A stretch of 64,000 nucleotides of DNA from a virus (IMGVR_UViG_3300031992_000005:32001-96000), one strand, 5' to 3'; counted from the stretch's first letter, positions 1,434-22,698 are shown. Translations and numbers: made by a program. The notes: a model not told the origin generated them from the letters alone.

Positions 1434-1695
1434 CTTTCAAATTACTAATTAAAGTTTCCATTGGCCAACCACTTCTCACTAGAATGGTTTTTGTATCCCA
1501 AAATAATTGAAAACCTGCACTATCACATATATGTACAATACCTAGGCGGTCATATAGCTCTTGTAGGTCTTCTTCATTATAGAAAGTTATTCCAAGAACT
1601 CCTCCAAGCTGATACGTAAAAATCACACTCCTAGGAAATAATTCAGCTTCAACAAGAAGATCTTCAACTTGTTCTTGTATTTTTTCTTCTAACAT
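1423..1695 (-). CDS. hypothetical acidic protein (90 aa)
   Basis: Intact ORF overlapping the downstream gene by 11 nt. No motif recognised. Confidence 0.55.
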   Translation of the reverse strand: MLEEKIQEQVEDLLVEAELFPRSVIFTYQLGGVLGITFYNEEDLQELYDRLGIVHICDSAGFQLFWDTKTILVRSGWPMETLISNLKDDE

Positions 1696-1714
1696 AAATC
1701 ATATGTTTTTTATT

Positions 1715-2926: not shown

Positions 2927-2937
2927 GATTCGAGTTT

Positions 2938-3093
2938 CTACGGGTTCAGATTCTCCCCCCCCCCTATGAGGTCCTCACTATTGAGAGATGGAAAGTAATC
3001 GCTCTTAACCCTTTTCTTTACATTCGCATAAATATATTCGCTCAATGTATCTCCTCCTAATTCATGGGAGAAACAGTCATTTACGTTGCTCAT
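2938..3093 (-). CDS. 51-codon leader ORF, probably the displaced N-terminus of the LRR protein
   Basis: The ATG at 3093..3091 forms an ATGA overlap with the stop of the upstream gene. The ORF runs through the G10 tract and stops 5 codons later (TAG 2940..2938). One extra G would fuse it in frame to the LRR ORF, giving a 459-aa product. Confidence 0.4.
   Translation of the reverse strand: MSNVNDCFSHELGGDTLSEYIYANVKKRVKSDYFPSLNSEDLIGGGENLNP
2955..2964. repeat. homopolymer tract C10 (+) / G10 on the coding strand
   Basis: Counted directly: ttct-cccccccccc-tatg. It lies between the leader ORF frame and the LRR frame. Confidence 0.95.
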
Positions 3094-3515
3094 ATTATTA
3101 TCTCATTTATCCTATTAGTTAATAAGCCAGAATTATTTAGTATATCAGCTAGGACGTGTCTGTGACAATTTTCATAGCTGCTACCATATCCTAAGAGAAC
3201 AATTGCTTTTGCTCCACAGCATTCCACAAGTTGTTCAAAAGTCCTAATTACTTTTTCCAAATTGACCTGGCTTATTTCAATTGCGTATCTTTTCTCAAAT
3301 TCTTCCTGTGTAATTAGGTTATCTCTCTTTGCCCTGAATAATTCATTACTAGGGGCAAGATCTTTCATATGTATTGGAGTATCTGAATATCCTCCAATTA
3401 ACGTAGAATTCTTTATGTTTCTGATTATAAAAATTGGTAAGAATTCTTTTTCAATATAATCCTTTAGTGTTAATGGTGACACGAAGGATGTATAAATTTT
3501 CAAATCTGTTTTCAT
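3090..3515 (-). CDS. DUF488 (YeaO-like) family protein, tentative
   Basis: Motif string LAPSNELF..K...IT.EEFEKRY..E ... VLLGYG....CHRHVLADIL resembles the DUF488 pattern (LAPS.eL, eF..Y..E, C.E..CHR..la..l). Judged from memory of the family only. Confidence 0.5.
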   Translation of the reverse strand: MKTDLKIYTSFVSPLTLKDYIEKEFLPIFIIRNIKNSTLIGGYSDTPIHMKDLAPSNELFRAKRDNLITQEEFEKRYAIEISQVNLEKVIRTFEQLVECCGAKAIVLLGYGSSYENCHRHVLADILNNSGLLTNRINEIII

Positions 3516-3524
3516 TTACTCGTT

Positions 3525-3950
3525 CTAAAGTTTAGACCCACCAAACTTCCTATACGAGCTTCTAAATCCTGTTGCACTAGCAAATCCTCCTCCAGTTTTC
3601 TGTTTCCCTTTACTAGGGGTGGTGTTAGATTGCTGGTTACTATTGCTGTTATTATTCCCGCTTCCGAACTTTTGGCCGCTAAGCATAAAGCCTGAGGGAG
3701 CGGTATTTAATCTTTTTATTAGTTTCATATTTCCTTCAATAATAGCTCTCATCGTGGCAGAGTCTACGTGATAGGAAATGTCAGGACAATCTAGGAGATC
3801 TACCTTTGACATTCCCGATGTTTGAAGGAAATTATTTAACATAACTAATGCTTCCGTTAGATTAGAAGCTACCATAAGTGAGTCTGTAGTAGGTTCATAG
3901 ACTGCATAGTTGTTCTTTGTTTTATCAAATTTAATAACAACTTCAACCAT
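3525..3950 (-). CDS. hypothetical protein with G/N/S/Q-rich basic tail (141 aa)
   Basis: Intact ORF with a low-complexity C-terminus (GSGNNNSNSNQQSNTTPSKGKQKTGGG). Confidence 0.6.
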   Translation of the reverse strand: MVEVVIKFDKTKNNYAVYEPTTDSLMVASNLTEALVMLNNFLQTSGMSKVDLLDCPDISYHVDSATMRAIIEGNMKLIKRLNTAPSGFMLSGQKFGSGNNNSNSNQQSNTTPSKGKQKTGGGFASATGFRSSYRKFGGSKL

Positions 3951-3954
3951 TTAG

Positions 3955-4356
3955 TTAAATAATTATTGCTAATAAGATGCCCAATACAAATCCTCCTCCT
4001 GCACCTAAGACAGTTTTGAAGAAAGATTTTTTCTTAAGCTTTTCATTTTCTTGATATAATCTCTTAGACTGATCTAAGTAATATTCTTCTTTAATTCTCT
4101 CTCTTTCCTGGATCTCTACGATAATAGAGTCCTTTATTCCAAGCTGTTCATCTTTTATAGTTAAGAGGGAGTCCATTATAACACTTTCTCTCATTCTATA
4201 CTCCCAATCTGCAATAATACCATTAATTGTTTTTAATTCTTGTGGTGTTATTGTAATAAGAGTATCTATGCCGATGACAACTTTTTTCTGTGAATATAAA
4301 GAAGAAGGGATAAAAAGAAAAGCTAAGAGAATAGTAATCATCCTAATAGTTTTCAT
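3955..4356 (-). CDS. secreted/membrane coiled-coil protein (133 aa)
   Basis: N-terminal signal-like hydrophobic stretch (ITILLAFLFIPSSLYSQ), a charged heptad-like middle and a C-terminal TM segment (GAGGGFVLGILLAIII). Confidence 0.6.
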   Translation of the reverse strand: MKTIRMITILLAFLFIPSSLYSQKKVVIGIDTLITITPQELKTINGIIADWEYRMRESVIMDSLLTIKDEQLGIKDSIIVEIQERERIKEEYYLDQSKRLYQENEKLKKKSFFKTVLGAGGGFVLGILLAIII

Positions 4357-4666
4357 ACTCTCTTAGTTTTTTCCCGAGATATTTTACTGCATCATCGGTA
4401 GATAGGTTTTTCACTTGTTCTATTTCTACCCCTCTTTGGCTCTCGAGTATCCAAAGGGCTTCTTTCAATGCATTGTTCATTAATTCTAGGCTATCTCCTC
4501 TCCTACTGAGAGAATCAATTCTATCATTCTCCTTTTGTACCAGGGAGTCAGGTATAATTATATCCCCTGGCATTACTGGTTTAGGTTGGTAGATTCCTTT
4601 ACCAAGGAGGAATCCACCAATCATACCCAATATGAAGGAACTTATAATTTTAAGATACTTCTTCAT
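4343..4666 (-). CDS. N-terminally anchored membrane protein (107 aa)
   Basis: A single N-terminal TM segment (IISSFILGMIGGFLLG) followed by a charged helical region. Overlaps the downstream gene by 14 nt. Confidence 0.6.
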   Translation of the reverse strand: MKKYLKIISSFILGMIGGFLLGKGIYQPKPVMPGDIIIPDSLVQKENDRIDSLSRRGDSLELMNNALKEALWILESQRGVEIEQVKNLSTDDAVKYLGKKLREYENY

Positions 4667-5237
4667 TAGCTTCAGTCACATATATTCCTATTCTATATTC
4701 GATCCCATCTTTCTTGAGGTAATTTACATAGTTATGAAATATTCTATAGTCTTTTTCTCCATCTCTTTGGATCATATGTGAATCCCAGCCATTAGATTCT
4801 GTTAATCTGGTTGCCAGGTATTCCAACTTATGAACCTTAGGACCATACTCAGTGAGAAGTTCTAGGCTAGAATTAGGATTCATTTTATCCTTCATTTCTT
4901 CAAGTTCCTTATAAACTTCTTCCTTAGTCATAATATTAGATGGAAATTCCTCCAACTTATATTGTTTTGGATCCGTCTGATTAGTAACAGTATTAATAAA
5001 TTGATCTCCTACTTTCTTACTGCTAATCTCCGCCAGGACTGCATTATAGTTTTTATTACCATTAATGAAATCCTTTATGTCAGTTAGAGTTTTCAGACTA
5101 GTTGTCATTCCAAGGCTAACAAATACGCCTAGGGGTCTTGTTAAATCTTTTCCATCTTCACTATTAACGTAAAAAGTTTTATACGTGGGCTGGTAAAATA
5201 ACTTTACCAGCTCATGTACCTTATCTCTATTAATCAT
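4650..5237 (-). CDS. hypothetical protein (195 aa)
   Basis: Intact co-oriented ORF. No motif recognised. Confidence 0.6.
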   Translation of the reverse strand: MINRDKVHELVKLFYQPTYKTFYVNSEDGKDLTRPLGVFVSLGMTTSLKTLTDIKDFINGNKNYNAVLAEISSKKVGDQFINTVTNQTDPKQYKLEEFPSNIMTKEEVYKELEEMKDKMNPNSSLELLTEYGPKVHKLEYLATRLTESNGWDSHMIQRDGEKDYRIFHNYVNYLKKDGIEYRIGIYVTEANEEVS

Positions 5238-5249
5238 TTTTCTATAGTT

Positions 5250-7040
5250 TTAATCCGCATATGAGCGATTGAAATTCTTTACAATGAAATTCGGCGCCCA
5301 TGTAAAGTTGTTATTGTAGTTAGACCTTCCATAATTGAAGCCATACACTGTATACTTAGGCATGTTCTTCAATACGTCGTTCCATTCTTCCAGATAATCT
5401 TCAAAGTCACTAACTACGATCAGTATAGAATCGGGTCTGTAGTTTTCCTTGAAGTACTGAATACCACGAGCTAGTCTTGTTCCACCACCAGAATGAATCT
5501 TTTCTACTCTTTCACCAGCTTTGATATTTCTGATATGTTCACCCATCCTAGTATTCCAAGTGATGATATCATATAGAAGACCCCTATTGATTGATCGCAT
5601 CTTTCTTGAAATGGTAGCTAAGATTCTGTCAATCAGAACAGTATCCATAGAGCCTGAGATATCAATAAGATATACAATCTTTGGTTTCGTATTGATACTG
5701 AACTTTGGTGTAATGGATGGAACTATAGCCGATCGAATCTTTCCGAGGTTATAGTTTCTCATAACGCTTCTCTCGAAACTGATCTTAAGAACTCTTGATC
5801 GAGTCTTATTAATCACTTCCTCAATAGCATCGTCAACTGGATCTTGCTTAGTAGTTATTCTTACACCGTCAGATCCACCTGAGCTTCCACAACCTGCTCC
5901 TCCACCGGCAGTAATTTGACCTAGTTCACGTGATTTATCTGCAGCGTCACGTTCTGTAGTTCTATGATCCTTATGAGTTCCTCCAGAAAGTTCCATGAAG
6001 TTCGAATCTCTCTTTCCAATGTACTTACTTAGTGCGTCTTTTCCGTTTTCCTTAAAACCACCAGAATTGCTGGTATCATTACCACTAGCACCTCCATTAG
6101 AACCAGAGTTTTGATCTCCCTGTTGATCCTGACCAGATTGTCCTTGACCATCCTGACCATCTTCGATCATACCAAGCTGTCTCATCATATCAGTCAAGCT
6201 TGTCATGCCATTTCCAAGTGCTTGAGCCAATTCATCATCTGTAACGCTGCTAGTATCTCCATTACCGCCGGAGCTAATACTAACCAACATCTTCACAAAC
6301 TGACTTATGTTCTTGATAATCAGAATCAGGTATTCAGGATAAGTTAAGCCAATTGGGAATGGACTACCATCCGAAAGATGATAGAAACTAGGGTGCATAA
6401 ACTTGATCTTAGCTTCTTTGGCCATCTTATCCAGGAGTTCATCAATCTTTTTCTTAATATGATCTGGAACGTTTTCTTGATCTCTAATTCCCTTTAATAC
6501 CTCTTCCTCCACTTTTGGTAGGGTTGAAGTTACTCCATTCTGCATAGTTTCAATACAGTCTAAGTCAAGAATCACTGAGTTAACTTCAAAATCCATTGCA
6601 ATATTATGGAGGGAGTGATTGAGAACTGGATCATCTATGATTCGATTAATCAGATCTTCCGCAAAATCAATCTTACATTCATTATTAATTCGATCGATTA
6701 ATTCTCCTCTATAGATTTTCAGAACACTTGCTACTTTTCTATCAAGCTCTTCATAAATACCATCAAGATGTGCAAGATAGATGTGACCATACTCATGCAT
6801 CTTAATGAAGTATTCAGTAGTTTGAAGAAGCTTATCATTGCCATCTTTATCCAACTTGGCTACAACCACATTATACAATGTTTTTCCTCCACTTGCATCT
6901 GCAAATTTCCAGGAGTAACCAAGTTCTGGATTATAAGGATCAAACGGCTTATTTAAGTTTTCTATTAACCGATACTGACCCCTATTGTAAGCTCTTTTAA
7001 CCAGGTTTTCAATAGGTCTGAGCTCATTAACAGTTTTCAT
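5250..7040 (-). CDS. vWA-domain protein with N-terminal HExxH metallopeptidase-like domain (DUF2201-like)
   Basis: HEYGH (HExxH) near the N-terminus and a Gly/Gln/Ser-rich linker. The C-terminal vWA MIDAS motif is IVYLIDISGSMD, followed by SGGGT and VVSDFED. It sits next to an AAA+ ATPase, as in MoxR/vWA pairs. Confidence 0.8.
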   Translation of the reverse strand: MKTVNELRPIENLVKRAYNRGQYRLIENLNKPFDPYNPELGYSWKFADASGGKTLYNVVVAKLDKDGNDKLLQTTEYFIKMHEYGHIYLAHLDGIYEELDRKVASVLKIYRGELIDRINNECKIDFAEDLINRIIDDPVLNHSLHNIAMDFEVNSVILDLDCIETMQNGVTSTLPKVEEEVLKGIRDQENVPDHIKKKIDELLDKMAKEAKIKFMHPSFYHLSDGSPFPIGLTYPEYLILIIKNISQFVKMLVSISSGGNGDTSSVTDDELAQALGNGMTSLTDMMRQLGMIEDGQDGQGQSGQDQQGDQNSGSNGGASGNDTSNSGGFKENGKDALSKYIGKRDSNFMELSGGTHKDHRTTERDAADKSRELGQITAGGGAGCGSSGGSDGVRITTKQDPVDDAIEEVINKTRSRVLKISFERSVMRNYNLGKIRSAIVPSITPKFSINTKPKIVYLIDISGSMDTVLIDRILATISRKMRSINRGLLYDIITWNTRMGEHIRNIKAGERVEKIHSGGGTRLARGIQYFKENYRPDSILIVVSDFEDYLEEWNDVLKNMPKYTVYGFNYGRSNYNNNFTWAPNFIVKNFNRSYAD

Positions 7041-7102
7041 AATTTTTCTATGTATTTAAAGAATTAACCCCAAGAGTTAATACCCCTGGGGTTCAAATGT
7101 TT

Positions 7103-8881
7103 TTACATAATGTCAGGGAATGTTGCTACCAAGTCTGGGCAACTTCTCTGAAGGCCTTTTTTAGTCATCTTAAGATGAGTACTGCACTGTCTACAATCAG
7201 AACGAAGATCGTTCAATGTAGTCTTAACTGTTGCAGGATACTTCTTCGACGGATCTGTAATCAAAGCACCAATCTCAGTAACAAGAGCATTCAAGTTATT
7301 CCAAGCATGGATCTTGCCAATATAGTCCTCTGGATTTGCCTTGATTTCATCAATCAAGTTACCACCGTTAGAACTACTGATCTTATTGGAAATGGACTTC
7401 GTAATCGTGCTCTTGATACTGCTGCAGATCTTTGAAATGATATCTTCGTCGAGTGGACGATCAATCGTATCAATTTCCTTGTCTGCACGAAGCTCCTTAA
7501 TCTTATTGGTGAGAATATTCATATCACCAATCGAGAATACCGTTCTTGTCTCATTCCCGATGAATGAGCGGAAGAATTCCTGATATTCTGGAAGCTTATT
7601 GCTCGTCATCTTTTCGATATCGTTCGAAGTATCACAGATGTTCATAAAGAATCGATCTGTCAGGATATTTCTTACAACCTCCCTAGTCTTAGGATCTCTT
7701 GTCAATCCAAGACCAATAGTACCGTTGATAATATTCTTAAAATTATCAGACATCAAACCTTCCTTTCCGAAGCAAGCATAACATGCTACAGCTGCATCAA
7801 GGAGATAGTTGAGCGTACGATACGTTGTGAGATTGCTAAGTGGCTCATCCACCTCATTTGTATCGGAATAAATATCCTTCATACTTGTGACATTGAAGTC
7901 AAGCAAACCTTCCTTCTGGAGAGCTTTTGCTTCTGTATTCAGGTTATTCTCGATATATTCACCCGCCTTATGAAGGAAATCTTCATCCAATGGCTTTTCT
8001 TGTGCCATAAGAGCACTCATAGATTTCTTGATCTCTTCAAATAGATCAATTCTCTTACCTGCAAGTGATCCCTGATACTTGCACAGATAATGATCAAGAT
8101 CATTAGCCTTTGGCTGGATATTGAATATGATGAAGCGGTTCAACATTGGAGCCAGAACTGTCATTTCATCTGACAGGTTTTCCGCATAATTACCGGCAGC
8201 TACAATTAATGTATCATCTGGCAATAACTCATCATGACATTTTCTATCGAACACTAGGTTTAGGGCTGCACCTTGAGTCTGTGGATTTGCTGTAGTCAAC
8301 TCATCAAGGAAGAGGAGAGTTTTCTTACCCTGCTCTTTGTTCTTGAGAATCTTCTGAAACCAAGATGGTCTGATATGCTTAGCTGAAGCATGATCATCGT
8401 TGGTCAACGCCTGTACGTTCGCAGACCCCTTCTTCGTAAGATCTTCAACCATCTTGTGGAATTCAGCGGTTGCAAATTCATTGAACTTTGCCTTGAACTC
8501 CTCAGGAATATTGTAATCTGAGCAAGAATCATCGATAAACTTCAAAAAACTGCCTTTTAAGGATTTCAATGAATGGGCAAACTGTTCTGTTGTTTTACAA
8601 ACTGCCTTATTGATTTCCTCTCCGCTAGTTTCAGATTTTACAGTGTCATAACCCGTAATAGTGTCTGGAGTTTCATTACTGATTCGAAGCAATACTAGCT
8701 CGTAATCATTAATTTCGGCAAAGAGCTTGACAGCAGTACTTTTTCCTACACCAATATTGCTAATAAGCAGGATGTTAGGAATGTCTATTGATCGGTCCTT
8801 TGCTCTCATCTCCATACATTTACGTGTGATTTGTAACGCGTAAAAGATGTTCGTGTCGATTGAATTGTTAAAATTAACCAT
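7103..8881 (-). CDS. AAA+ ATPase, MoxR/CobS-like, with ~300-aa C-terminal extension
   Basis: Walker A SNIGVGKST, Walker B TLLFLDELT, sensor-1-like IVAAGNYA. Paired with the downstream vWA gene. Confidence 0.8.
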   Translation of the reverse strand: MVNFNNSIDTNIFYALQITRKCMEMRAKDRSIDIPNILLISNIGVGKSTAVKLFAEINDYELVLLRISNETPDTITGYDTVKSETSGEEINKAVCKTTEQFAHSLKSLKGSFLKFIDDSCSDYNIPEEFKAKFNEFATAEFHKMVEDLTKKGSANVQALTNDDHASAKHIRPSWFQKILKNKEQGKKTLLFLDELTTANPQTQGAALNLVFDRKCHDELLPDDTLIVAAGNYAENLSDEMTVLAPMLNRFIIFNIQPKANDLDHYLCKYQGSLAGKRIDLFEEIKKSMSALMAQEKPLDEDFLHKAGEYIENNLNTEAKALQKEGLLDFNVTSMKDIYSDTNEVDEPLSNLTTYRTLNYLLDAAVACYACFGKEGLMSDNFKNIINGTIGLGLTRDPKTREVVRNILTDRFFMNICDTSNDIEKMTSNKLPEYQEFFRSFIGNETRTVFSIGDMNILTNKIKELRADKEIDTIDRPLDEDIISKICSSIKSTITKSISNKISSSNGGNLIDEIKANPEDYIGKIHAWNNLNALVTEIGALITDPSKKYPATVKTTLNDLRSDCRQCSTHLKMTKKGLQRSCPDLVATFPDIM

Positions 8882-8923
8882 TTTTCTTACAACTTGAATT
8901 TTTTAATTTAAAATTAAACATGA

Positions 8924-8952
8924 GTTATCATATATAAGATTTTAACGGGGTT
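8924..8952 (-). promoter_or_regulatory. promoter-like motif (recurrent consensus)
   Basis: The minus strand reads AACCCCGTTAAAATCTTATATATGATAAC, about 45 nt upstream of the ATG at 8881. Near-identical boxes occur at 22511 and 35636. Confidence 0.45.
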
Positions 8953-8968
8953 ATATATGCAAAAATGC

Positions 8969-8993
8969 AAATAAAAAGGGGGAATATCCCCCT
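8969..8993 (-). terminator. intrinsic terminator
   Basis: GGGGG-ATATT-CCCCC hairpin immediately after the stop of the 8997..9890 gene, followed on the minus strand by TTTTTAT. Confidence 0.65.
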
Positions 8994-8996
8994 ATT

Positions 8997-9890
8997 TTAC
9001 TCTAATACGTACTTTCCGTCTCTGAGATTATATACATCGATATAATCCATTCCTGCTTCTCTGGCGGAACAGATATCTCGATTGCTTAATCCCCATCTAC
9101 CAGTACAGATACCTATGAAAATTGTATTTTGTTGTGGAATCTTTAAGTTATCCAATACTTTCATTAGGATATCTGCTCTTGGAGAAGTTTCATCTGTATA
9201 TCTTATGAAAAGTACATTTTCTTTCGGAATACGCAGATAAGAACTAAGACATAATGATACATAATTGAGTAGTACGGTAGAAGATGTACTATCTTCCACT
9301 AGTCTCTTTAAATCCTTGTCGCTGACTAATATACCAAGTGTCGTTAATCCAAAGCTTCCAATTCTACTCCAGATATCAAGCTTGGGAATTAGGTCATAGA
9401 TTCCTCTCGGGAATATTCTTGGTCTTCCTCTACTATCAGATGATTCATATAAGCAGTCCAAAAAATTTGTTACAACAAAGGATTTTATTGGTACTGTACC
9501 TTCTACTTTTACTGTAGTATTATCTGTAGTTGAACTAACATTACTACTACTACTGTAGTAGCCATTAGGAGAGGCGTTCTTCCAATTTTTATAGGAATTT
9601 GTAGATCCTTCCATCTCCCAAGGGCCAGGATCATTAGGATTATTCCCGCCGGGAGATCCTACTCCAAAATTAGGTCCTCTTCCTTTATTACCTTCTACAA
9701 AAATATTATTTGTCATTGACGAATCTTTTTTCGTTTCCTCATATTCCAGACGATCTAGTTCTCGTTCAATAGCGATTTCGTCTTCGTCCATCAACTCCTC
9801 TAGACCATCACTTCCATCTTCCGTTGGATGTAAGCTTTCTGCCATTATCCCTGTATAATCTGGAGGTAAATACTTTAGAGGCTCGCTCAT
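8997..9890 (-). CDS. hypothetical protein (297 aa), acidic N-terminus, G/N/S-rich middle
   Basis: Intact ORF. No confident motif. Confidence 0.6.
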   Translation of the reverse strand: MSEPLKYLPPDYTGIMAESLHPTEDGSDGLEELMDEDEIAIERELDRLEYEETKKDSSMTNNIFVEGNKGRGPNFGVGSPGGNNPNDPGPWEMEGSTNSYKNWKNASPNGYYSSSSNVSSTTDNTTVKVEGTVPIKSFVVTNFLDCLYESSDSRGRPRIFPRGIYDLIPKLDIWSRIGSFGLTTLGILVSDKDLKRLVEDSTSSTVLLNYVSLCLSSYLRIPKENVLFIRYTDETSPRADILMKVLDNLKIPQQNTIFIGICTGRWGLSNRDICSAREAGMDYIDVYNLRDGKYVLE

Positions 9891-9892
9891 TC

Positions 9893-10474
9893 TTAGTTAG
9901 AATTAGATTCGACTTTAAGCTGCTCTTCACTACTTGGTGAATCTGCCATTGGATTTTTATCCTTCTTGATCAGCTTATTAGCCAGTTCAATATCATAGTC
10001 TTCATTTTCAAAGACTTGAGCTAACCAGCAGAATTCATTAGTGGATTTACACTCCGATTTATCTTCCCTATAAGATGCGCATGTACCCGGACATAATTTA
10101 TCAATTATCTCAGGGATACTAACGAGCATTTTCTCTTTAATGGCCTTCTGATAAAGGTCTGGAATAATATCGGGGTAAGCCTTTTCAATGGACATTGGTG
10201 CAGGTACAAAGTGATTTAATTCCACATCCCTTTCCGATACGTTGTCCACATTTCCCAGATCGCTACATAAATCCATATAACTTCTTTCTGGGTCGCTTGG
10301 ATCTCTTGGATCTGGGTAAGTCCTGCACTTCTTTTCTCCGTAAGGGCAAACGGCTGTACAAGCTGCACATTTCATTTCGTTTAGCTTGTCAGTATCAACT
10401 CCAATAAATTCTTGATAACGATCTCCAAACGGAGTACTAACCTTAACCATTCTAGGTTTCATCAACTTCGACAT
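9893..10474 (-). CDS. Cys-rich hypothetical protein (193 aa)
   Basis: Intact ORF with clustered cysteines (CAACTAVCPYGEKKC ... CPGTC ... C..C). Confidence 0.6.
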   Translation of the reverse strand: MSKLMKPRMVKVSTPFGDRYQEFIGVDTDKLNEMKCAACTAVCPYGEKKCRTYPDPRDPSDPERSYMDLCSDLGNVDNVSERDVELNHFVPAPMSIEKAYPDIIPDLYQKAIKEKMLVSIPEIIDKLCPGTCASYREDKSECKSTNEFCWLAQVFENEDYDIELANKLIKKDKNPMADSPSSEEQLKVESNSN

Positions 10475-10514
10475 ATATTTTAAATTTTAAAAGTACATTT
10501 ATAAGGATTTCGGC

Positions 10515-12047
10515 TTATTGAATATTTACTTCTCTAAGCTTCCACTTAACTGTAGCCATGTAAGAGGAATCTCCGAGGATAGGGACTTTACATTCGATAT
10601 CTTCAATGTAAGGCGAATGGTGATCCTTCTTGAAATTCACTGTTTTGGAGATGATCATTCTGAGAGTTAGGTACTTCAGAGAATCACTGCATGCGCGAAG
10701 CTTCTTTGACCAAAATTCCAAATCCTTACCTTGTTCATTAACCTTATCAAGAATCCACTTGAGTTGACTTGACTTATTCTTTGACAAGAAATTGCCTACT
10801 TCCCCAGTCTTGATATAACTTACTATGGCCTCCTGGATTTTTGCTGTATCCGAAGGAACGTTGTTAATATAAGTTATCAATGCCGTGGAGAATTTCTTTG
10901 GTAATTCTGCATCAACTGAAACTGCGTTTGATGGATAGAACTTCTTGCCATAGATACCAAGGCTTTCTAGGAACTGTATCTGAGGATCAATCTTCTTTTC
11001 GCCTTTATTCATATCCTCAATAGTCTCGTAGTATTGTACAGCAATCTTAGAGACATATTCGCTTACCTTAGCCATAGCTAACTGATTAGCATAAAGCTTT
11101 CCAATCTTAGTCTTTTCTATGATAGGAAGCTTTGTCAGATCAACTGTATCTCCTACAAGAACCTTCATACTATGAAGTTTTTTCTTGAGAGAAGGATCAC
11201 TGAGTCTTACTTTCAGCTTATTGATGTTCAATACACCATCGCTGACAACGTTGATTGTTCTGATACAAGTCAAACCCTTTCCAGCTTCTTTACTGATGCC
11301 AAGGTTGTTGTCTGGAACATCAACGTCGACAAATGTTCTGTAGGAAAGCGAGAGATTAGCCCTTTGCTTATTGCCCATGACACTTATTACAGTTTTCCAA
11401 GGACAATTGTCAAACTTTACATTATCTGGAAGTTTAACTTTGCTATCCGTAACACGCACAAATCCTTCAATAGAAACTTCTGCATGATCCTTTGCCAGGT
11501 CTTGGAGAAGTGAGAATACACTATACTTACTATTACAACTTCCGTAAGTCACTGGGTACTTTACTTTCTCAGCCAAGATGTTCAGTTTAAGATTCTCTTG
11601 ATTATTTTGAATATAGAGAGCCAACCCTTCCTTTAGCAACTGGAATTGTTTTTCTCCATACGCTCTATTGAAAGATGTAATAAGGTCATCGTCTTTCGTA
11701 GACAAGAACAGTGATTCCATCAAGCTCAAGTACTTAATAGGTAATCCTATGATTGTTCGCAGAATAACCAATAATTCTGCATTGTTGTGGAGATTCTGTC
11801 TTTTAGGTTCTCCTGCTTTTATCTCTGTGATAAGATAAAAAACAGATACATTAGCTAAAGGCAGCATCTCCCCTTTCAGGGGAACAAATCGAATATTATT
11901 ACCCCCTTCGCCAACAGTAATGGCGAATTTGTACATAAGACTACCTCTATTTTCCACTCGATAGAGGCCATTCTCGTTAACTACATGGTAAACTGATAGC
12001 TTAATTTTACTATCTCTTACCTTAAATTCATTCGTTTTTGTTACCAT
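10515..12047 (-). CDS. hypothetical protein (510 aa)
   Basis: Long intact ORF. Its first 8 codons (MVTKTNEF) and its upstream leader are duplicated in front of gltX. Confidence 0.7.
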   Translation of the reverse strand: MVTKTNEFKVRDSKIKLSVYHVVNENGLYRVENRGSLMYKFAITVGEGGNNIRFVPLKGEMLPLANVSVFYLITEIKAGEPKRQNLHNNAELLVILRTIIGLPIKYLSLMESLFLSTKDDDLITSFNRAYGEKQFQLLKEGLALYIQNNQENLKLNILAEKVKYPVTYGSCNSKYSVFSLLQDLAKDHAEVSIEGFVRVTDSKVKLPDNVKFDNCPWKTVISVMGNKQRANLSLSYRTFVDVDVPDNNLGISKEAGKGLTCIRTINVVSDGVLNINKLKVRLSDPSLKKKLHSMKVLVGDTVDLTKLPIIEKTKIGKLYANQLAMAKVSEYVSKIAVQYYETIEDMNKGEKKIDPQIQFLESLGIYGKKFYPSNAVSVDAELPKKFSTALITYINNVPSDTAKIQEAIVSYIKTGEVGNFLSKNKSSQLKWILDKVNEQGKDLEFWSKKLRACSDSLKYLTLRMIISKTVNFKKDHHSPYIEDIECKVPILGDSSYMATVKWKLREVNIQ

Positions 12048-12108
12048 TTTTCTAGTAATTATTATGAATTAAACAATATAACATTCAAATATAAAGAGTT
12101 TAAGGCTT
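12014..12108 (-). repeat. promoter/leader/first-codons module, copy A
   Basis: About 90 nt matching 13691..13779 at roughly 90% identity by eye, with two short indels. It includes the ATG and codons for MVTKTNEF. Confidence 0.85.
12082..12108 (-). promoter_or_regulatory. promoter-like motif with exact TAnnTTTG box
   Basis: The minus strand reads AAGCCTTAAACTCTTTATATTTGAATG. TATATTTG fits the Bacteroidota -7 consensus TAnnTTTG. Confidence 0.5.
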
Positions 12109-12146
12109 AGATACTGCAGCTCTTTCTATCGTATTTTCATTGCAAC

Positions 12147-13727
12147 TTATCTCAGTTGCGCAATAGCATTTTTCATGCGCTTAATGGTTTCTTCCTTGCC
12201 AAGAAAAGCTGCCAACTCATACATATCAGGTCCCTGTCCTGTTCCCACCAAGCAAACACGCCAAGCGTTCCAAGGCTTGAATCCATGTGCCTCCGTCCAT
12301 GCTTCAATCATTTTCTTCAGACTTTCAACAGAGAAGTCATCAAGTGATTCGAGCACACCAATAAGCTCATCCATCTCCATAGCAGTTGTTTCTTTCCAGT
12401 TCTTGCGGACAAACTTATCTTCCTTGTTGTATATTTCAGGAGTTACAAAGAAGAACTTAGTCAGCGGCCAAAGGTCACTGATGAAGCTTACATTCCTCTT
12501 CTTCTTGTTGCCGTCGTTGTCAACATATTCAATCACTTTCTGTTTCATCATCTCCACGACTTGCGCTTCCTGCTGAGGCGTGGATTCAATGCCATTAGCA
12601 CGAAGAATCTTATTAAATTCAGGAACCCACTCCTCCGCTGGCTTTTTGAGTATATACTGGTGATTGAACCAAATGCTCTTCATGTAGTCAAAATGCGCAC
12701 CACACTTTGAGCACTTACTGAGATCGAACCTCTCAATAAGTTCATCCATCGACATTAATTCCTGGTCGTTACCTGGATTCCAACCAAAGAGAGCCAAGAA
12801 ATTGACTAATGCCTCTGGCAGGTAGCCTTTTTCACGATAGCCTGGACTAACCTCTCCCGACTTAGGGTCGTGCCATTCAAGAGGGAACACAGGAAATCCC
12901 AGTTTATCGCCATCGCGCTTTGAGAGTTTTCCATTACCCATACCCACTGGCTTGAGAATCAATGGTAAATGAGCAAAGCGTGGCATTGTGTTCTGCCAAC
13001 CAAATGCTTCATAGAGCAGCACGTGAAGTGGAGCCGAAGGCAACCATTCCTCACCACGAATAACGTGGGAAATCTTCATTAAGTGGTCATCCACAATGTT
13101 TGCCAAGTGATAAGTAGGCAATTCATCAGCACTCTTGTAGAGTACCTTGTCGTCGAGGATACTGCTGTTAATGCTTACATCGCCACGAATCAAGTCATCC
13201 ACATGCACATCACGTCCTGGCTCAATCTTAAAACGAACCACATACTGTTTGCCGTCAGCAATCAGTGCATCCACTTCTTCCTTACTGAGAGTGAGAGAAT
13301 TACGCATCATCATGCGGGTTTTGGCATCGTATTGGAAGTTCTCTATTTCCTGACGCTTAGCATCAAGTTCCTCGGGTGTGTCGAAAGCAAGATAAGCTTT
13401 GCCATCGTCAAGCAACTGCTGTACATATTTCTTATAGATGTCACGGCGTTCACTTTGGCGATATGGGCCATAGTTGCCACCAAAGGAAACACCTTCATCG
13501 AATTTGATTCCTAACCAATTGAACGACTCAATGATATACTCTTCAGCTCCTGGAACAAAACGATTGGAATCGGTGTCTTCGATACGGAAAATCAAGTCAC
13601 CACCATGTTGTTTTGCGAACAAGTAATTGTAGAGAGCTGTGCGAACCCCACCAATGTGCAGAGGTCCTGTTGGGCTGGGTGCAAAACGCACTCTTACCTT
13701 ATTAAATTCATTTGTTTTTGTTACCAT
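12147..13727 (-). CDS. gltX: glutamyl-tRNA synthetase (class I)
   Basis: [17 protein letters not shown] (HIGH motif), [21 protein letters not shown] and GKLSKRDG (KMSKS motif). Full length at 526 aa. Visibly higher GC than its neighbours. Confidence 0.95.
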
Positions 13728-13779
13728 TTTTATTATTAATTAAACAATATAACATTCAAGTATAAAGAGTTTAAAGCTT
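13691..13779 (-). repeat. promoter/leader/first-codons module, copy B
   Basis: Matches 12014..12108. It supplies the ATG and MVTKTNEF in front of the native GluRS N-terminus ([12 protein letters not shown]). Confidence 0.85.
13753..13779 (-). promoter_or_regulatory. promoter-like motif
   Basis: The minus strand reads AAGCTTTAAACTCTTTATACTTGAATG, the duplicate of the 12082 box. Confidence 0.45.
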
Positions 13780-13832
13780 CAGGACCTCAAGCCCTTACAG
13801 GTGTATATAATTAATATTAAAAAGATTAGACT

Positions 13833-14423
13833 ATGAAATGGGAATGGTATGAAGTAACAACTGAAGTCTTAAAAGAAGCTTTGGAGTTTTATAGCAAGCC
13901 TGAAGAAGACTGGATCAAAGATGTAGTTATTGAAGTCCAAAATCCAGCTAGCTTAATAAATTCAAGAGTATATCTTACTGCAGTGCCACCAGATAAGATG
14001 GATAAAAAATTGGCAGAAGTAGCAAAAATGATTTCAGTTATTGTTGTTAACCCAGGAGAAAAGTTTGCCAGAGTTACATTAACGCCAATGAATCAATTTT
14101 TTGGTAGTAGTTGCTTAGAGAAACTTTTCGGAAATGTGTATAAGCCACATGAACGTAGCTATCTAAATTTTCTCAAACAGAAAAAGATAGAAGGTGAATC
14201 TTTTGAGAAATATCTCAATAGGATGTGGTATATATTCTGTAACGATGAACGAGTACGGGTCGGAATCGGAGAAGAGGATATTTATAACCCTAATGAGAAA
14301 TTCGTTAGAATTAGGCCTATATACTACGACACTTGGTTAGACTTGATGAAATTATATACAGAAACAGGAAACATTAAATACCTTATACCTGAACAAGATA
14401 TTAAAATTTTTAAAGTTAAATGA
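13833..14423 (+). CDS. hypothetical protein (196 aa)
   Basis: Intact ORF, first gene of a short plus-strand block. No motif recognised. Confidence 0.6.
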   Translation: MKWEWYEVTTEVLKEALEFYSKPEEDWIKDVVIEVQNPASLINSRVYLTAVPPDKMDKKLAEVAKMISVIVVNPGEKFARVTLTPMNQFFGSSCLEKLFGNVYKPHERSYLNFLKQKKIEGESFEKYLNRMWYIFCNDERVRVGIGEEDIYNPNEKFVRIRPIYYDTWLDLMKLYTETGNIKYLIPEQDIKIFKVK

Positions 14424-18053: not shown

Positions 18054-18228
18054 AGCAATTGACTCTATCTCTGGAAAATTGGTATCTTGGCCGATAATAG
18101 TAGTGCTAGTATCTATTGCGCACTATTGTTTTGCGGCAATGCATTTCCTATTTGAAACTTATCTTTATCTCTTCAATAGAGATCAGTTTGAATTAAATAT
18201 GGTATCCTTAAGCAAGAGGTTAGCATGA
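17977..18228 (+). CDS. small membrane protein (start uncertain)
   Basis: Hydrophobic core SWPIIVVLVSIAHYCFAAMHFLF and an ATGA overlap with the next ORF. It overlaps the upstream gene by 50-77 nt depending on the start chosen. Confidence 0.4.
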   Translation: MKYSRLLKIMLEKEKIHWRRLKNLFKAIDSISGKLVSWPIIVVLVSIAHYCFAAMHFLFETYLYLFNRDQFELNMVSLSKRLA

Positions 18229-18380
18229 AAAAGACTAGTTTCTGGCATAACCTTCTTAGGGGAATGATATACCTCCTGGTATGCAAAGGCATATTTTGGT
18301 TAATGCCTTTTCAAGATGCCATAGTACTTATCTCTGCGATAGTAATATGTAATTTGGATCTCATAAATGAGAAAAAATAA
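18225..18380 (+). CDS. small membrane protein (51 aa, below ORF-track cutoff)
   Basis: Translated by hand as MKKTSFWHNLLRGMIYLLVCKGIFWLMPFQDAIVLISAIVICNLDLINEKK. Starts in an ATGA overlap and is followed by a terminator. Confidence 0.5.
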   Translation: MKKTSFWHNLLRGMIYLLVCKGIFWLMPFQDAIVLISAIVICNLDLINEKK

Positions 18381-18390
18381 AAAAGAAAGA

Positions 18391-18421
18391 ATAGAGCCCG
18401 AAAGGACTCTATTTTTTTTTG
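18391..18421. terminator. intrinsic terminator (GAAA-looped hairpin plus T9)
   Basis: ATAGAGCCC-GAAA-GGACTCTAT followed by TTTTTTTTT. An A/T-rich run upstream allows action on the minus strand too. Confidence 0.7.
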
Positions 18422-18591
18422 TCTCCAAAGATTAAACGTTTATTTTAAAAGCTTTAGTTCTAATTCACCGTTTCCGCCTGAGGTTCTATACATACATATG
18501 TATAGATTACCTGGCATCTTCAGTACGAGCTTCACCCGTATACGATTTATCAGACCTAAAGTGTTAAAATTGTTTCTATAAAGGTTACAAA

Positions 18592-18640
18592 TAAGAAAAG
18601 AGAACCTTAACTGAAATTGTTGTGTGTGTTAAAGTTCTCT
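18592..18640 (-). terminator. candidate terminator for the 58-aa minus-strand ORF
   Basis: Imperfect ~11-bp hairpin (18600-18611 pairs with 18628-18639), followed on the minus strand by TTTTCTTATTT. Confidence 0.4.
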
Positions 18641-18648
18641 TCTCTCCA

Positions 18649-18825
18649 TTAGAGTTTGTCTGTCACCGTTTTCAGGTGAAACAAACAGTACGTTGTCATC
18701 AAGAACCAGATACCAATTGAAATCTGGTTCTCACAGAATGGCCGGTAATCGGCCAAAAGAAGTGCTAATCCAAAAAACATTCCTATGAAGGAAATAATTC
18801 GGATTATTTTAACTAATTTTTTCAT
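18649..18825 (-). CDS. small two-TM membrane protein (58 aa, below ORF-track cutoff)
   Basis: Translated codon by codon as MKKLVKIIRIISFIGMFFGLALLLADYRPFCENQISIGIWFLMTTYCLFHLKTVTDKL, with two clear hydrophobic helices. Confidence 0.5.
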   Translation of the reverse strand: MKKLVKIIRIISFIGMFFGLALLLADYRPFCENQISIGIWFLMTTYCLFHLKTVTDKL

Positions 18826-18829
18826 GTCG

Positions 18830-19480
18830 CTAATTTTTTTTTGTTATAATTTCTATAAATAGGTTACCTATATCTTCTCTATATAGGATTTATGATCTCC
18901 GATTATAGTTCACTGTGAGTATTTTTCTATTTATACTCTGACCTCTTCGGTCTTTAGATTCCTATAATAGTCAGGCTGTAACCTAACCACCGGATATCAC
19001 GCTCTATTACTTCAATGATTTGGATTTACAGATCCTCCTCATCTTTTCATAGTTCCTCAGGACGTCCTGAGTACTGCGCTTTGATCGAGACCCTGCCAAA
19101 GATTCTTCATCTTCAGGTTTCTCGTCCCGTAGATAATCTCTTCGATTATCCAAAATTTTGTATAAAAATTATTTTAAAATACCCCAAACGTACCTCAATA
19201 TTTGTGGGTACTGCGGGGTATGTGTCTATAAATAATAGTGTTATTGTCTTCTTTAACACTTTAACCTTTTATACGCTCTGAGCCAATACATCAATCGGGT
19301 ATAACAACTTCCCTTTTTCCCAATCTCCTGGTAAGATTGATGCGCTATGCTATTTTCTGTTCGCTCAGACGAACCCAAGTACTATCTATCTTGGCTGTCC
19401 TTATATAGGTCCCCCATAGCCACCTTCAGTATGCCTATATAAGTTAGTAGTATACGTTTCAACTACATAGTATCGGTATA
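18830..19480. ncRNA. ORF-free, hairpin-dense island; candidate large structured RNA or long leader (strand unresolved)
   Basis: About 650 nt with no convincing ORF and locally raised GC. Perfect hairpins include 18867-18887, 18940-18952, 19056-19071, 19132-19150 and a two-tier one at 19182-19218. Bounded by a palindromic promoter-like box at 19498. Confidence 0.3.
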
Positions 19481-19497
19481 TATTTATTCATATATAA

Positions 19498-19511
19498 CCT
19501 TATATATAAGG
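19498..19511. promoter_or_regulatory. perfect 14-nt palindrome CCTTATATATAAGG (promoter-core-like on both strands)
   Basis: Read directly. It contains the CCTTATATA core of the recurrent promoter motif in both orientations. Confidence 0.4.
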
Positions 19512-19686
19512 CTTTCACCAGATAACAAAAAGGAAAAAAATTTCGGTCTATTTCCTTAAGAATGTACTAAAATTATGAATATTATGAGAAAATTAGTGAA
19601 TTTTAACATGGGAACGCTATTATTAATAAATTTTTTAGTAATGGCAGTTATTACATTAGTGAGACTTGGTTATCGGATCGCTGAAA

Positions 19687-20781: not shown

Positions 20782-20991
20782 TTACGTATCTCTTGTAAGT
20801 ATTGTCCAGAATATGGCTACTATTAATACGATCATTACTATAGGCCATAGCCATAGCATGAAAAACTTCAAGATACGCTCTAAGAGTTTATTCTTGAAAG
20901 TAATTCTCCTAGTAAGATTATATTCCTGTAGGGTCATAAATCCTACTATCAAGTAGCAAATTACTATAAATGTAATTTCAATGTAACCCAT
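20782..20991 (-). CDS. small two-TM membrane protein (69 aa)
   Basis: Two hydrophobic helices. Overlaps the upstream gene by 14 nt. Confidence 0.55.
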   Translation of the reverse strand: MGYIEITFIVICYLIVGFMTLQEYNLTRRITFKNKLLERILKFFMLWLWPIVMIVLIVAIFWTILTRDT

Positions 20992-22471
20992 AAAACGCCT
21001 TTCTAATTTTTATTAATATATCATCTACTACAGATTTGTCAATTTCATCAGGGAGAGATGAATTAGCCATAGCCTGTTTCATCTCCTCGTCTTTACTTTC
21101 TAAGAATTTCATAAGATCATCATATACGACATTACCTTCTCGAATATTCATCAAGAATTCTCTATCGATATTTCTTCGATCTAATTTCATGCCTTCTCCT
21201 TTGGCGATCTCAATTCCCATTGTTAAGAGTCTAGCACTATGACAAGCATTTTTCAGGTCATAATGTCCTTTCTTTGCGAGATTAAATCTCTCTTCATTAT
21301 GATGCTTATTCCAGTCATTGTATTCATGATACTGCTTACAATAGTTCGAGTAGCCATCTTTATTATAAGATACATCAATGAGAGGCAACTCACCTTTCGG
21401 AATGGAGCTTAGTCTTACTTGATTACTAGTATCAGCCAAGTTAACTAATCCCTTATAGCCAAAAGGCTTTTTATATCTCTCCCAAGTGAGATGAATGAAA
21501 TCTCCTTCATCATATGCCCCGAATAATGTAAAAGCATTTACGAATAGTAATTTCCAGAATGGATCAATATCTTGGAAATTCTCCGTGAACGTATTGGAGA
21601 ATTTTGGCAAATGTTCTGCAAATTCTTCTTCTGTTGTAATACCAATATCCTTAAGATGTGCTCCCCAGTCATAGTACATGCTATACATGCAGTTCATTCC
21701 GTCCAGGTTAACTAATCCACAGAATTCCTGCTTCAATTTATTGAAACCTAGGTAATCGACAACCTTCTTAACATCACCGTCAACTGCATATAAGATATAC
21801 TCTAGACAGCTCTTAAGTGGACCTGTCATAGGTTGAGTAATTTTCTTCTTTAGATCCCTAGCTCTTTCAATCTGAGTCTTAGCATATCCTAAGAATGAAT
21901 GGAAGCATTTCTTAGTGATAAACCTATCTCTTTCCTGTAAGATAATATCCATTAATGGATGTTTATAAAGAATTTTATCTTCAGGAACAAATAAAGACTC
22001 TAAGACATTTGGATTTGATTTAAGCAAGAGGAGAAGAAATTTTTTGAGACTAAACCAAGACTCATTATTATCCCGAGTATTAATATCCTCTGGAAAATCC
22101 AGTCCTGTTCCAAAACAGATTTCCATAGGTTCAATGAATACTCCGCCATGATCTTCATCGCTTTCTGGCCTATCTAAGCCATATAAACGACTACCACGTA
22201 TATATTCATATAACAAGAACCCATTTTTTCTAATGTAATCAAATTCAAAATGATCTAATGAATAGTCATCCTGAATAGCTACATTAGTAGTACAGAATTC
22301 ACTATTAATTTCTATTGTATAAACTTTACCAACTTCTACTATGAAAGTTTTTTCAAGTAAGTCGATAACAGTTCCTACCATTCTCCAACACCATCTATGC
22401 TGAAGAATTATTAAGGTTGACCCTTTTTCAATAGTCTTTCCATAAAAGTCTACAAATTTCATTTTTTCCAT
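20978..22471 (-). CDS. pol-beta-superfamily nucleotidyltransferase-like protein (497 aa)
   Basis: IRGSRLYGLDRPESDEDHGGVFI fits the GS-x(9-10)-[DE]xD minimal nucleotidyltransferase motif (the 'predicted nucleotidyltransferase' type seen in phages). Confidence 0.55.
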   Translation of the reverse strand: MEKMKFVDFYGKTIEKGSTLIILQHRWCWRMVGTVIDLLEKTFIVEVGKVYTIEINSEFCTTNVAIQDDYSLDHFEFDYIRKNGFLLYEYIRGSRLYGLDRPESDEDHGGVFIEPMEICFGTGLDFPEDINTRDNNESWFSLKKFLLLLLKSNPNVLESLFVPEDKILYKHPLMDIILQERDRFITKKCFHSFLGYAKTQIERARDLKKKITQPMTGPLKSCLEYILYAVDGDVKKVVDYLGFNKLKQEFCGLVNLDGMNCMYSMYYDWGAHLKDIGITTEEEFAEHLPKFSNTFTENFQDIDPFWKLLFVNAFTLFGAYDEGDFIHLTWERYKKPFGYKGLVNLADTSNQVRLSSIPKGELPLIDVSYNKDGYSNYCKQYHEYNDWNKHHNEERFNLAKKGHYDLKNACHSARLLTMGIEIAKGEGMKLDRRNIDREFLMNIREGNVVYDDLMKFLESKDEEMKQAMANSSLPDEIDKSVVDDILIKIRKAFYGLH

Positions 22472-22510
22472 AAAAATATATTTATTAAATACATATTTAA
22501 GGGAATAATG

Positions 22511-22541
22511 TCCCCTTAAATTCTTATTTATATATGATAAC
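22511..22541 (+). promoter_or_regulatory. promoter-like motif on the strand opposite to both flanking genes
   Basis: TCCCCTTAAATTCTTATTTATATATGATAAC closely matches the boxes at 8924(-) and 35636(+). Confidence 0.45.
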
Positions 22542-22617
22542 GAATTTAATTGTCAGTTTCAGTTTCGTTTGCTTAATTTTAGTGGTGGCTTATTATCTAT
22601 CCAAGAATGGAAGGTAA
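22534..22617 (+). CDS. possible 27-aa hydrophobic micropeptide (or non-coding sRNA body)
   Basis: Hand translation gives MITNLIVSFSFVCLILVVAYYLSKNGR. The ATG lies inside the promoter-like box, so coding status is doubtful. Confidence 0.2.
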   Translation: MITNLIVSFSFVCLILVVAYYLSKNGR

Positions 22618-22634
22618 TAAGCCTTTCTTTTTTG
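22587..22634 (+). terminator. intrinsic terminator of the orphan plus-strand unit
   Basis: Perfect 9-bp stem GGCTTATTA/TAATAAGCC (22587-22595 with 22615-22623) followed by TTTCTTTTTT. Confidence 0.6.
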
Positions 22635-22698
22635 TTCAAAAAAAAAATAAGAAGGGAACAACCTAATCTCTAGGTCCCTCCCCTCCTTACTATAAACT

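Follow-up and report, generated by a model that had tools for sequence, protein, structure and literature searches.

Probable capture of a host glutamyl-tRNA synthetase gene by a rumen jumbo phage through microhomology-guided insertion behind a duplicated phage gene start

How does a bacterial gene for a translation enzyme come to lie in a phage genome behind the start of its phage neighbour? The question is raised by a 64,000-nt stretch of viral DNA (IMGVR_UViG_3300031992_000005:32001-96000), here called the window, to whose positions all coordinates given without a contig name refer. It contains a gltX gene (12147-13727) coding for a glutamyl-tRNA synthetase (GluRS) of 526 aa and, downstream of it, a gene for a 510-aa protein (10515-12047). 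Both genes, and the two copies of a duplicated segment that head them, are on the minus strand. The initial annotation of the locus, made from its sequence, proposed that a host GluRS gene was inserted and put under phage control by duplication of the resident expression signals. Our analysis leads to a closely related view. With a probability of roughly 0.85, gltX was captured from a host by illegitimate, microhomology-guided recombination and was fused to a duplicated phage upstream region and the head of the 510-aa gene. The present protein can be divided accordingly into residues 1-8, which are phage-derived, Asn9, which comes from a 3-nt insertion, and the part from K10 to the stop codon, which is host-derived.

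Copy A of the duplicated segment (12014-12108, 95 nt) heads the resident 510-aa gene, the original owner of the head. Copy B (13691-13779, 89 nt) heads gltX and consists of an upstream region, a leader, the ATG, eight phage codons, the Asn9 codon and K-V-R. Both the coordinates and the assignment of the copies to the two open reading frames (ORFs) are as first annotated. In each copy about 55-60 nt of upstream sequence are followed by the ATG and the codons for MVTKTNEF. A global alignment of the two gave 83 matches, 3 mismatches and 12 gap columns that form two indels, equal to 96.5 % identity when only the aligned bases are counted and 84.7 % when all columns are; the earlier value of about 90 % is a fair description. 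Copy B differs from copy A by C>T at repeat position 5, T>C in a promoter-like box, the loss of 9 nt from the leader and the gain of 3 nt. The 9 nt present in copy A only (ATTACTAGA, 12051-12059, minus strand) are also found in related phages that do not carry gltX at this site (see below). The 3-nt insertion, which may be read as TAA or AAT and forms codon Asn9 (13701-13703, minus strand), is found neither in copy A nor at the empty site nor in the closest host genes. In one relative (L003:9959-10000), copy B has the A-type base at one diagnostic site (TTCATAAT, not TTAATAAT), possibly a trace of gene conversion between the copies.

At the inner edge, both copies close with the same AAGGTAAGAG (12014-12023 and 13691-13700), the shared sequence that had been noticed there before. 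The repeat had been described as ending with the first eight codons; MVTKTNEF is indeed common to both, and the DNA repeat reaches codon 11, through K-V-R. These last 10 nt are host sequence as well. At the outer edge, the identity falls sharply at AAGC. A diverged extension of the repeat further upstream was considered and ruled out, as the spacer and the sequence upstream of copy B match at about 40-58 %, depending on gap placement.

The predicted product of gltX is a class I glutamyl-tRNA synthetase of the bacterial GluRS type. The catalytic domain (PF00749, Rossmann fold, Glu/Gln class I family) was found at residues 10-348 with an E-value of 1e-92 and the C-terminal anticodon-binding domain (PF19269) at residues 411-522 with an E-value of 6e-20. 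The protein matches the solved Bacteroidota GluRS 6b1z over its full length (E-value 4e-165), and the alignment to solved GluRS structures begins at residue 8. Aligned with 6b1z, the HIGH signature is HIGG (aa 24-27; 13647-13658, minus strand) and the KMSKS signature is KLSKR (aa 267-271; 12915-12929, minus strand); both are intact, as had been reported. The dN/dS ratio of phage gltX to host alleles is about 0.06 (range 0.05-0.08), compared with 0.02-0.03 between host alleles, values that indicate strong and slightly relaxed purifying selection. The enzyme may charge tRNA-Glu during infection, for which the low ratio is indirect support.

The 120 best protein matches of the phage GluRS are all GluRS proteins. 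The top cellular ones, 519 aa in length and 91-94 % identical in protein, belong to Bacteroidaceae metagenome-assembled genomes (MAGs), and the best representative genomes are the rumen Prevotellaceae/Bacteroidales MAGs RUG849 (94 %) and RUG14395 (92 %). In DNA, gltX is 90 % identical to the genes on the host contigs L008-L011 and L015. The host-contig genes are considered chromosomal because their neighbours are cellular genes, HSP20 on one side and Kdo transferase on the other, with glycoside hydrolase genes around them. Among the 120 closest proteins, all cellular ones start with M-x-(E/D)-R-KVRVRF or a variant of it, none contains MVTKTNEF, and the start MVTKTNEFN is found in phage allele P0002 only. 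The view that this N-terminus is not native to GluRS therefore holds. Another phage allele begins with MATETNEFN, which means that the protein sequence of the borrowed head is not conserved. The G+C content of gltX is 0.43-0.47 and that of its surroundings 0.30-0.39, in agreement with the higher value remarked on earlier. The nearest relatives of the gene, which are chromosomal GluRS genes, show the host derivation that had been proposed and point to the chromosomal gltX of an uncultured rumen Prevotellaceae/Bacteroidaceae host as the source.

The 5' junction is formed by AAGGTAAGAG, a 10-nt in-frame microhomology between the 510-aa gene and gltX of the donor clade. In the phage gene it follows codon 8, and it is already present at the unoccupied site of related phages. 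In host genes of the donor clade the sequence is ATGGTTGAAAGA-AAGGTAAGAG-TGCGT, and the 10-mer stands in the frame that it has in the phage gene. Read in codons, hosts of the closest clade have ATG GTT GAA AGA before the 10-mer and phage gltX has GAA TTT AAT; both continue with TG CGT after it. Phage and host DNA become identical exactly at AAGGTAAGAG, and the next 200 nt contain one mismatch to host L008. Among 80 Bacteroidales genomes, K-V-R is spelled as AAGGTAAGAG in the closest host clade only (L008, L013 and L016). As the other genomes use other K-V-R codons, the microhomology is precisely one between the phage gene and the donor lineage. The initial annotation had suspected a junction at a K-V-R microhomology. 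The 10-nt match is real; a crossover at that point in its simple form does not account for the junction, because three extra nucleotides adjoin it. The extra AAT (Asn9) may have arisen at the junction by a TAA/AAT slip or may be of later date. Its derivation from a host allele with the start MSNKVRVRF was ruled out, since that clade spells the region AATAAAGTCAGAG and not AATAAGGTAAGAG.

At the 3' junction, the host identity ends at the gltX stop codon. A spacer of 38 nt without a terminator-like hairpin (12109-12146, minus strand) separates the stop codon from copy A. In all other gltX-carrying relatives this spacer is 28 nt long (L001:11582-11609), and the window has the additional AATGAAAATA. 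The last sense codon of gltX is AGA in the window and AAG in the relatives. No source of the spacer was found in the sampled hosts or in the phage, where only chance-level matches of 9-12 nt were obtained.

The state of the locus without gltX can be read in three sister phages (L096, L097 and L099), which were reached via other members of the 510-aa protein cluster. In these phages, a 197-aa gene (given on the minus strand of the contigs) and the 510-aa gene are divergent and are separated by 113 nt, with no gltX between them. When the window was compared with L096 using BLAST, its left flank corresponded to L096 positions 1-6034 and its right flank to 5940-13533. The two flanks thus overlap by 95 nt on the empty site, and the overlap is exactly the duplicated segment. 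The sequence upstream of the single copy in L096 is that found upstream of copy B, and the sequence downstream of it is that found downstream of copy A. Copy A is identical to the single copy of the sister phages at 91 of 95 positions. Because the single copy in all three shows the A state at every diagnostic position, the changes in copy B (two substitutions, the 9-nt deletion and the 3-nt insertion) are, on this comparison, derived. The 113-nt divergent spacer of the empty-site phages must hold whatever starts the leftward gene block. The duplication spans the 62 nt nearest to the ATG, and after the insertion gltX inherits the full original context. A single-copy arrangement in relatives lacking gltX, which had been suggested as something to look for, therefore exists; it is either ancestral or a reversion (see below).

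From these observations, the capture may be reconstructed as follows. The host coding sequence would have been joined in frame to the 510-aa phage gene at AAGGTAAGAG, by which GluRS would have exchanged its M-x-E-R start for the phage upstream region, leader, ATG and MVTKTNEF. The host stop codon, together with 28-38 nt from a source not found, would have been joined 62 nt upstream of the ATG of the 510-aa gene. The 95-nt segment lies on both sides of gltX because the second join is 95 nt upstream of the first. In the product, gltX would take the original place beside the divergent intergenic region, and the 510-aa gene would keep a complete set of signals. The duplicated segment may hold a working promoter and a translation-initiation region. 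Its limits may be explained by persistence, since the products that persist need gltX in frame behind a start and the signals of the 510-aa gene intact. The proposal that the insertion placed a host GluRS behind a duplicated phage upstream region, ATG and MVTKTNEF is in this way borne out by the 95-nt overlap on the empty site.

Such an event would be a break-join or a template switch that involves two copies of the phage genome. By the first route, two break-joins would connect two replicating phage genome copies with a fragment of host DNA. By the second, replication would switch template to host DNA and back. The latter resembles microhomology-mediated break-induced replication (MMBIR) and template switching (FoSTeS), with which the locus shares an insertion with target duplication, microhomology at one junction and short filler at the other; the same product could arise from two break-joins with two phage genome copies and a host fragment, and the two routes are not distinguishable from the product. 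After the capture, homologous recombination with gltX of successive hosts would have repeatedly overwritten parts of the phage copy. In addition, the two direct repeats would make gltX an excisable cassette, which may account for the sister phages without it.

Within the duplicated segment, a candidate promoter box was found in each copy. The box in copy A (TATATTTG, 12086-12093, minus strand) ends 38 nt before the ATG and is also present at the empty site; the box in copy B (TATACTTG, 13757-13764, minus strand) ends 29 nt before the ATG. TATATTTG is a perfect match to the Bacteroidota -7 consensus, TAnnTTTG. Scans for sigma-70-type promoters and for terminators showed no enrichment over shuffled sequences, and no Rfam family, known leader or riboswitch was found in 11900-13900. 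In RNA, ATTACTAGA would pair as the 5' side of a 6-bp hairpin that covers the start codon, and the deletion in copy B removes this side. The hairpin is weak, and the leader RNA folds no better than shuffled sequence.

Another motif, CCTTA-N4-TGTA, occurs in the window 8 times in exact form (0.73 expected; 0 of 100 shuffles reach 8), mostly about 20-30 nt before start codons, including those of the topoisomerase II and RlaP genes. On the minus strand it is found at 10494-10506, 22490-22502 and 29672-29684, and on the plus strand at 13793-13805, 19554-19566, 33029-33041, 36215-36227 and 62190-62202. The copy at 13793-13805 (CCTTACAGGTGTA, a perfect match) precedes the divergent 196-aa gene (13833-14423, plus strand) by 27 nt; it lies just outside copy B and was not duplicated. 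The motif contains the TA....TG core of the Bacteroidota -7 box and is a candidate for a phage promoter class.

Several points weigh against the capture as reconstructed above. The 5' junction is not a clean crossover, with three extra nucleotides in copy B beside the microhomology, and with the donor of the spacer not found, no statement can be made on homology at the 3' junction. The promoter role of the box is that of a candidate, for which the match to the host -7 consensus is the support. That consensus is rare upstream of genes in the window (3 of about 45 gapped upstream regions), and copies A and B match CCTTA-N4-TGTA only with 2 mismatches. Since the terminator scan showed no terminator between gltX and the 510-aa gene, transcription of the latter could come from gltX by read-through. 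Every sampled host allele differs by 13-22 % from the central part of phage gltX (CDS 640-1140). The phylogeny does not polarise gain and loss, because the gltX-carrying L100 and L101 are, in the 510-aa gene, further from the window than the empty clade is and because the flanks are mosaic. The scan for further copies of the segment covered 64 kb of about 353 kb. Finally, all data are metagenome assemblies, in which the collapse of near-identical phage and host reads could create some of the apparent mosaicism of gltX. Four other explanations of the locus are considered in the following.

The most probable of them, which we regard as less likely than not but which deserves serious attention, is that L096, L097 and L099 are revertants that lost gltX by homologous recombination between copies B and A, the capture then being older than all three clades and gltX a cassette that is both gained and lost. 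With the same spacer and the same junction, gltX is present in two diverged clades, one formed by the window and L001-L007 and the other by L100 and L101. In the 510-aa gene, the empty clade is nearer to the window (6.0-7.0 % divergence) than L100 and L101 are (7.4-8.6 %), and midpoint rooting would nest the empty clade inside the gltX carriers. The 3' part of gltX in L100 is 5-6 % different from that in the window, similar to the flanks, and direct repeats with 96.5 % identity are a ready substrate for deletion. Against this, the single copy is of the A type at every diagnostic site, including repeat position 5 and the indel at the far end, so that a crossover between B and A would need to fall in the first 4 nt, unless the changes in B arose later. 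Distant relatives (26 % aa identity) are also without gltX at this position.

The three clades were compared over 7.5 kb downstream. In this flank (about 4150-12047, minus strand), the divergence per 500-nt window ranges from 1.6 % to 12 % between the window and L100 and from 3.4 to 7.6 % between the window and L096. Such variation indicates phage-phage recombination within the downstream block. When the most divergent 500-nt windows are left out, the three clades are roughly equidistant, and as the flanks are mosaic the clades are not rootable. A root on the empty branch requires one event, a gain, and a gltX older than all three clades requires two. The capture model stands either way because the empty site still shows the target before insertion, and an empty state must once have existed because gltX is of host origin.

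Between the window and its relative L001, gltX is 5.9 % different and 18.8 kb of flanks 1.6 % (Fisher p = 4e-22). All of the excess is in the 5' 1063 nt of the gene (8.0 %), while the 3' 481 nt are 1.2 % different. In the variable-site table, the window is identical or nearly so to the host L008/L015 alleles over CDS 37-236 and 337-536, and L001 has the pattern of host L016 over CDS ~100-330. The triplet maximum-descent test resolved L001 as a recombinant of the window and host L016 and the window as a recombinant of L001 and host L008 (0 of 20,000 permutations in each case). A third phage allele, P0127, has host-identical protein patches of its own at aa 370-409 and 490-526. Phage gltX is accordingly a patchwork whose tracts match those of different host alleles, most simply read as repeated and continuing homologous recombination of the phage copy with gltX of the infected cells. 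Independent assemblies yield the same gltX alleles (those of L001, L002 and L003, from three assemblies, agree over the whole gene), which argues against chimeras made by the assembler. As phage gltX is 90 % DNA-identical to the host gene, the capture or an exchange should have been very recent.

A more far-reaching, and in our opinion rather doubtful, reading is that phage gltX and host chromosomal gltX form one recombining gene pool, with segments moving in both directions and the excisable cassette being gained, lost and handed on between phage lineages. If so, pieces of a core translation gene would be carried by the jumbo phage from one strain of rumen Prevotellaceae hosts to another, and the AT-shifted 5' tract that is exactly the same in L008-type alleles and the phage would be a phage-to-host import. 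In the 5' tract of host L008, GC>AT and AT>GC changes number 17 and 5, compared with 44 and 28 in the rest of the gene; the contrast was judged too weak to give a direction, and no formal test was applied.

Other features of gltX are common to the phage alleles and set them apart from the hosts. Phage alleles have a third-position G+C content (GC3) of 0.47-0.50, lower than the 0.54-0.60 of hosts. Counted over the positions that separate every phage allele from all six close host alleles, substitutions are GC>AT in 22 cases and AT>GC in 1. All phage GluRS alleles have a 2-codon insertion (Gly262-Met263; 12939-12944, minus strand) directly before the KMSKS loop; neither the 26 closest host proteins nor the solved Bacteroidota GluRS has it. 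Because of the AT-ward fixed changes, the lower GC3 and the common Gly-Met insertion, gltX has been resident in phage long enough for a drift toward the AT-rich composition of phage DNA.

Another possibility is that gltX came from another phage with an already ameliorated copy rather than directly from a host, with the host-identical tracts added later. We regard this as improbable. The divergence of central gltX from all sampled host alleles, together with its AT shift, would be expected in that case; a GluRS family exists in PHROGs (phrog_35649, E-value 2e-106), and GluRS in huge phages of Bacteroidetes is documented (PMC7162821). However, when the 6-kb region was searched by megablast and the 510-aa protein by tblastn, none of 50,697 phage records matched, the nearest relatives of every part of gltX are host alleles of one clade, and the 10-mer at the junction is spelled as in the donor host clade. 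For the diverged centre, either the original donor is unsampled or this part was acquired by another route. An unsampled host donor is plausible, since gltX alleles within the donor clade differ from each other by a dS of about 1.

The third alternative takes the 95-nt segment for a general mobile regulatory cassette which lies before many genes and mediates their shuffling. The model would be the promoter-stem-loop (PeSL) cassettes of T4-type phages, which have many dispersed copies with a promoter and a terminator hairpin (Arbiol et al. 2010, PMC2839356). In both systems, expression signals repeated in direct orientation enclose a non-essential gene that only some close relatives have, as is the case for PeSL-flanked ORFs, and excision is possible in principle. 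Unlike PeSL, the present repeat is a unique segment in two copies, includes 8-11 codons of one specific gene, has no terminator-like stem-loop in or beside the copies and is associated with one insertion. When the window was searched, with up to 3 mismatches allowed, for the head (27-nt probe) and for the leader (32-nt probe), only the positions of copies A and B were matched (0.00 matches expected from shuffles) and no third copy was found. Each gltX-carrying relative has 2 copies and each gltX-less relative has 1, with none beyond the homologous positions. Exact head and leader patterns had no match in IMG/VR or in JGI metagenome contigs, which is weak evidence because that collection evidently does not hold these contigs. 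Even with a search restricted to the window, a cassette of this kind is very hard to reconcile with the copy numbers, which also dispose of the notion, raised at the outset, of a general intergenic element.

The least credible explanation is an assembly artefact, either a phage contig into which the assembler inserted host gltX or a merging of phage and host reads. In its favour, the data are short-read assemblies, phage and host gltX have exact stretches of at least 200 nt in common, and host contig L014 carries an implausible 770-aa duplicated GluRS. Against it, both junctions are found again in at least 10 independent contigs, which come from different studies and different assemblers, L098 is nucleotide-identical to the window across gltX and both junctions, the alleles of L001-L003 agree as noted, and the phage copy has fixed features of its own (the head, the 2-codon insertion and the 22 AT-ward substitutions). 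The L014 protein itself (P0001, L014:1662-3974) has two GluRS catalytic and two anticodon-binding domains, begins with MAERKVRVRF and ranks first by bit score among the matches to the phage GluRS. An assembly artefact is probable here; alternatives are a partial tandem duplication and an integrated second allele.

The genome around this locus is, from its gene content and relatives, that of a jumbo phage of about 353 kb with uncultured rumen Prevotellaceae/Bacteroidaceae as predicted hosts. The exact GluRS and 510-aa proteins of the window are found on public contigs of 353,025 and 353,905 bp, and a 380-kb contig with split multisubunit RNA polymerase genes carries, next to these, a distant homologue of the 510-aa protein. 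The 510-aa protein had no relative in IMG/VR. Among the ORFs of the window are those for a phage-type topoisomerase II large subunit, an RlaP nucleotidyltransferase, an amidoligase, a glutamine amidotransferase and an AAA ATPase with its VWA partner, in addition to dozens of small ORFs without matches (ORFans). Neither virion genes nor tRNA genes were seen in the 64 kb.

The 510-aa gene is the first of a conserved leftward block, in which it is followed by genes for 193-aa and 297-aa proteins, the AAA ATPase and the VWA protein. Searches of Pfam and PHROGs gave no function for the 510-, 193-, 297-, 196- and 155-aa neighbours. The region 18060-19660 (L001:4145-5674) contains about 1.5 kb with only ORFs of less than 90 aa and no called genes in relatives; neither tRNAs nor notable tandem repeats were found there, and Rfam matches did not rise above chance. 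At 20978-25392 (minus strand), genes for an RlaP-type nucleotidyltransferase, an amidoligase and a class II glutamine amidotransferase form a run, and distant relatives of this neighbourhood have RtcB and Thg1. Because of this run and of the RtcB and Thg1 genes in distant relatives, the neighbourhood suggests a putative RNA/tRNA repair or modification module near gltX. A 403-aa protein with BspA-type leucine-rich repeats (PF13306, E-value 3.5e-74) is encoded at 1715-2926 (minus strand).

Illegitimate recombination and morons are known sources of phage mosaicism, as developed by Hendrix and colleagues, and a classic moron has its own promoter and terminator. The present gltX is similar to a moron in being a foreign gene of different G+C content between two phage genes, joined with few homologous bases. 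Unlike a moron, the insert has neither promoter nor terminator of its own and uses a duplicate of the resident signals and N-terminus. Homeologous recombination as a source of phage mosaicism is addressed by Martinsohn et al. (2008, PMC2327257).

Huge phages carry aminoacyl-tRNA synthetase genes, and in the published GluRS subtree phage sequences branch inside or beside those of Bacteroidetes hosts (Al-Shayeb et al. 2020, PMC7162821, Extended Data Fig. 7a). The present case agrees with these in that a phage of more than 200 kb has a host-related aminoacyl-tRNA synthetase; it differs in that the junctions, the microhomology, the duplicated target and the unoccupied site are readable. For the later history of the gene, the psbA and psbD genes of cyanophages, in which host-phage intragenic recombination was described (Sullivan et al. 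2006, PMC1484495), are the closest parallel; Zeidner et al. (2005), as cited in that paper, belong to the same theme. Patchy G+C content, amelioration to phage composition and a statistically supported mosaic of host alleles are common to both. The difference is in the gene and the setting: a photosystem gene there, and here an essential translation enzyme in Bacteroidota of the anaerobic gut and rumen. GluRS in huge Bacteroidetes phages having been published already, the locus adds a clear new case, and an unusually legible one, to a known kind of event. We would class it as the capture of a host gene by illegitimate recombination with psbA-like exchange of alleles afterwards, and nothing in it is categorically new.

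What the locus offers is a view of the capture itself. This moment is almost never visible because junctions erode, and the states before and after are rarely seen together with both junctions. The 95-nt target duplication would give the newcomer ready-made expression signals without silencing the resident gene, and it provides a testable recipe for how a promoterless gene becomes expressed in a phage. In addition, tracts of 200 nt with 0-1 mismatch to a host gene allow a host to be assigned to an uncultured rumen jumbo phage. On the reading given here, the continuing host-phage allele exchange known from psbA would extend to an essential translation gene and to the Bacteroidota of the gut and rumen.

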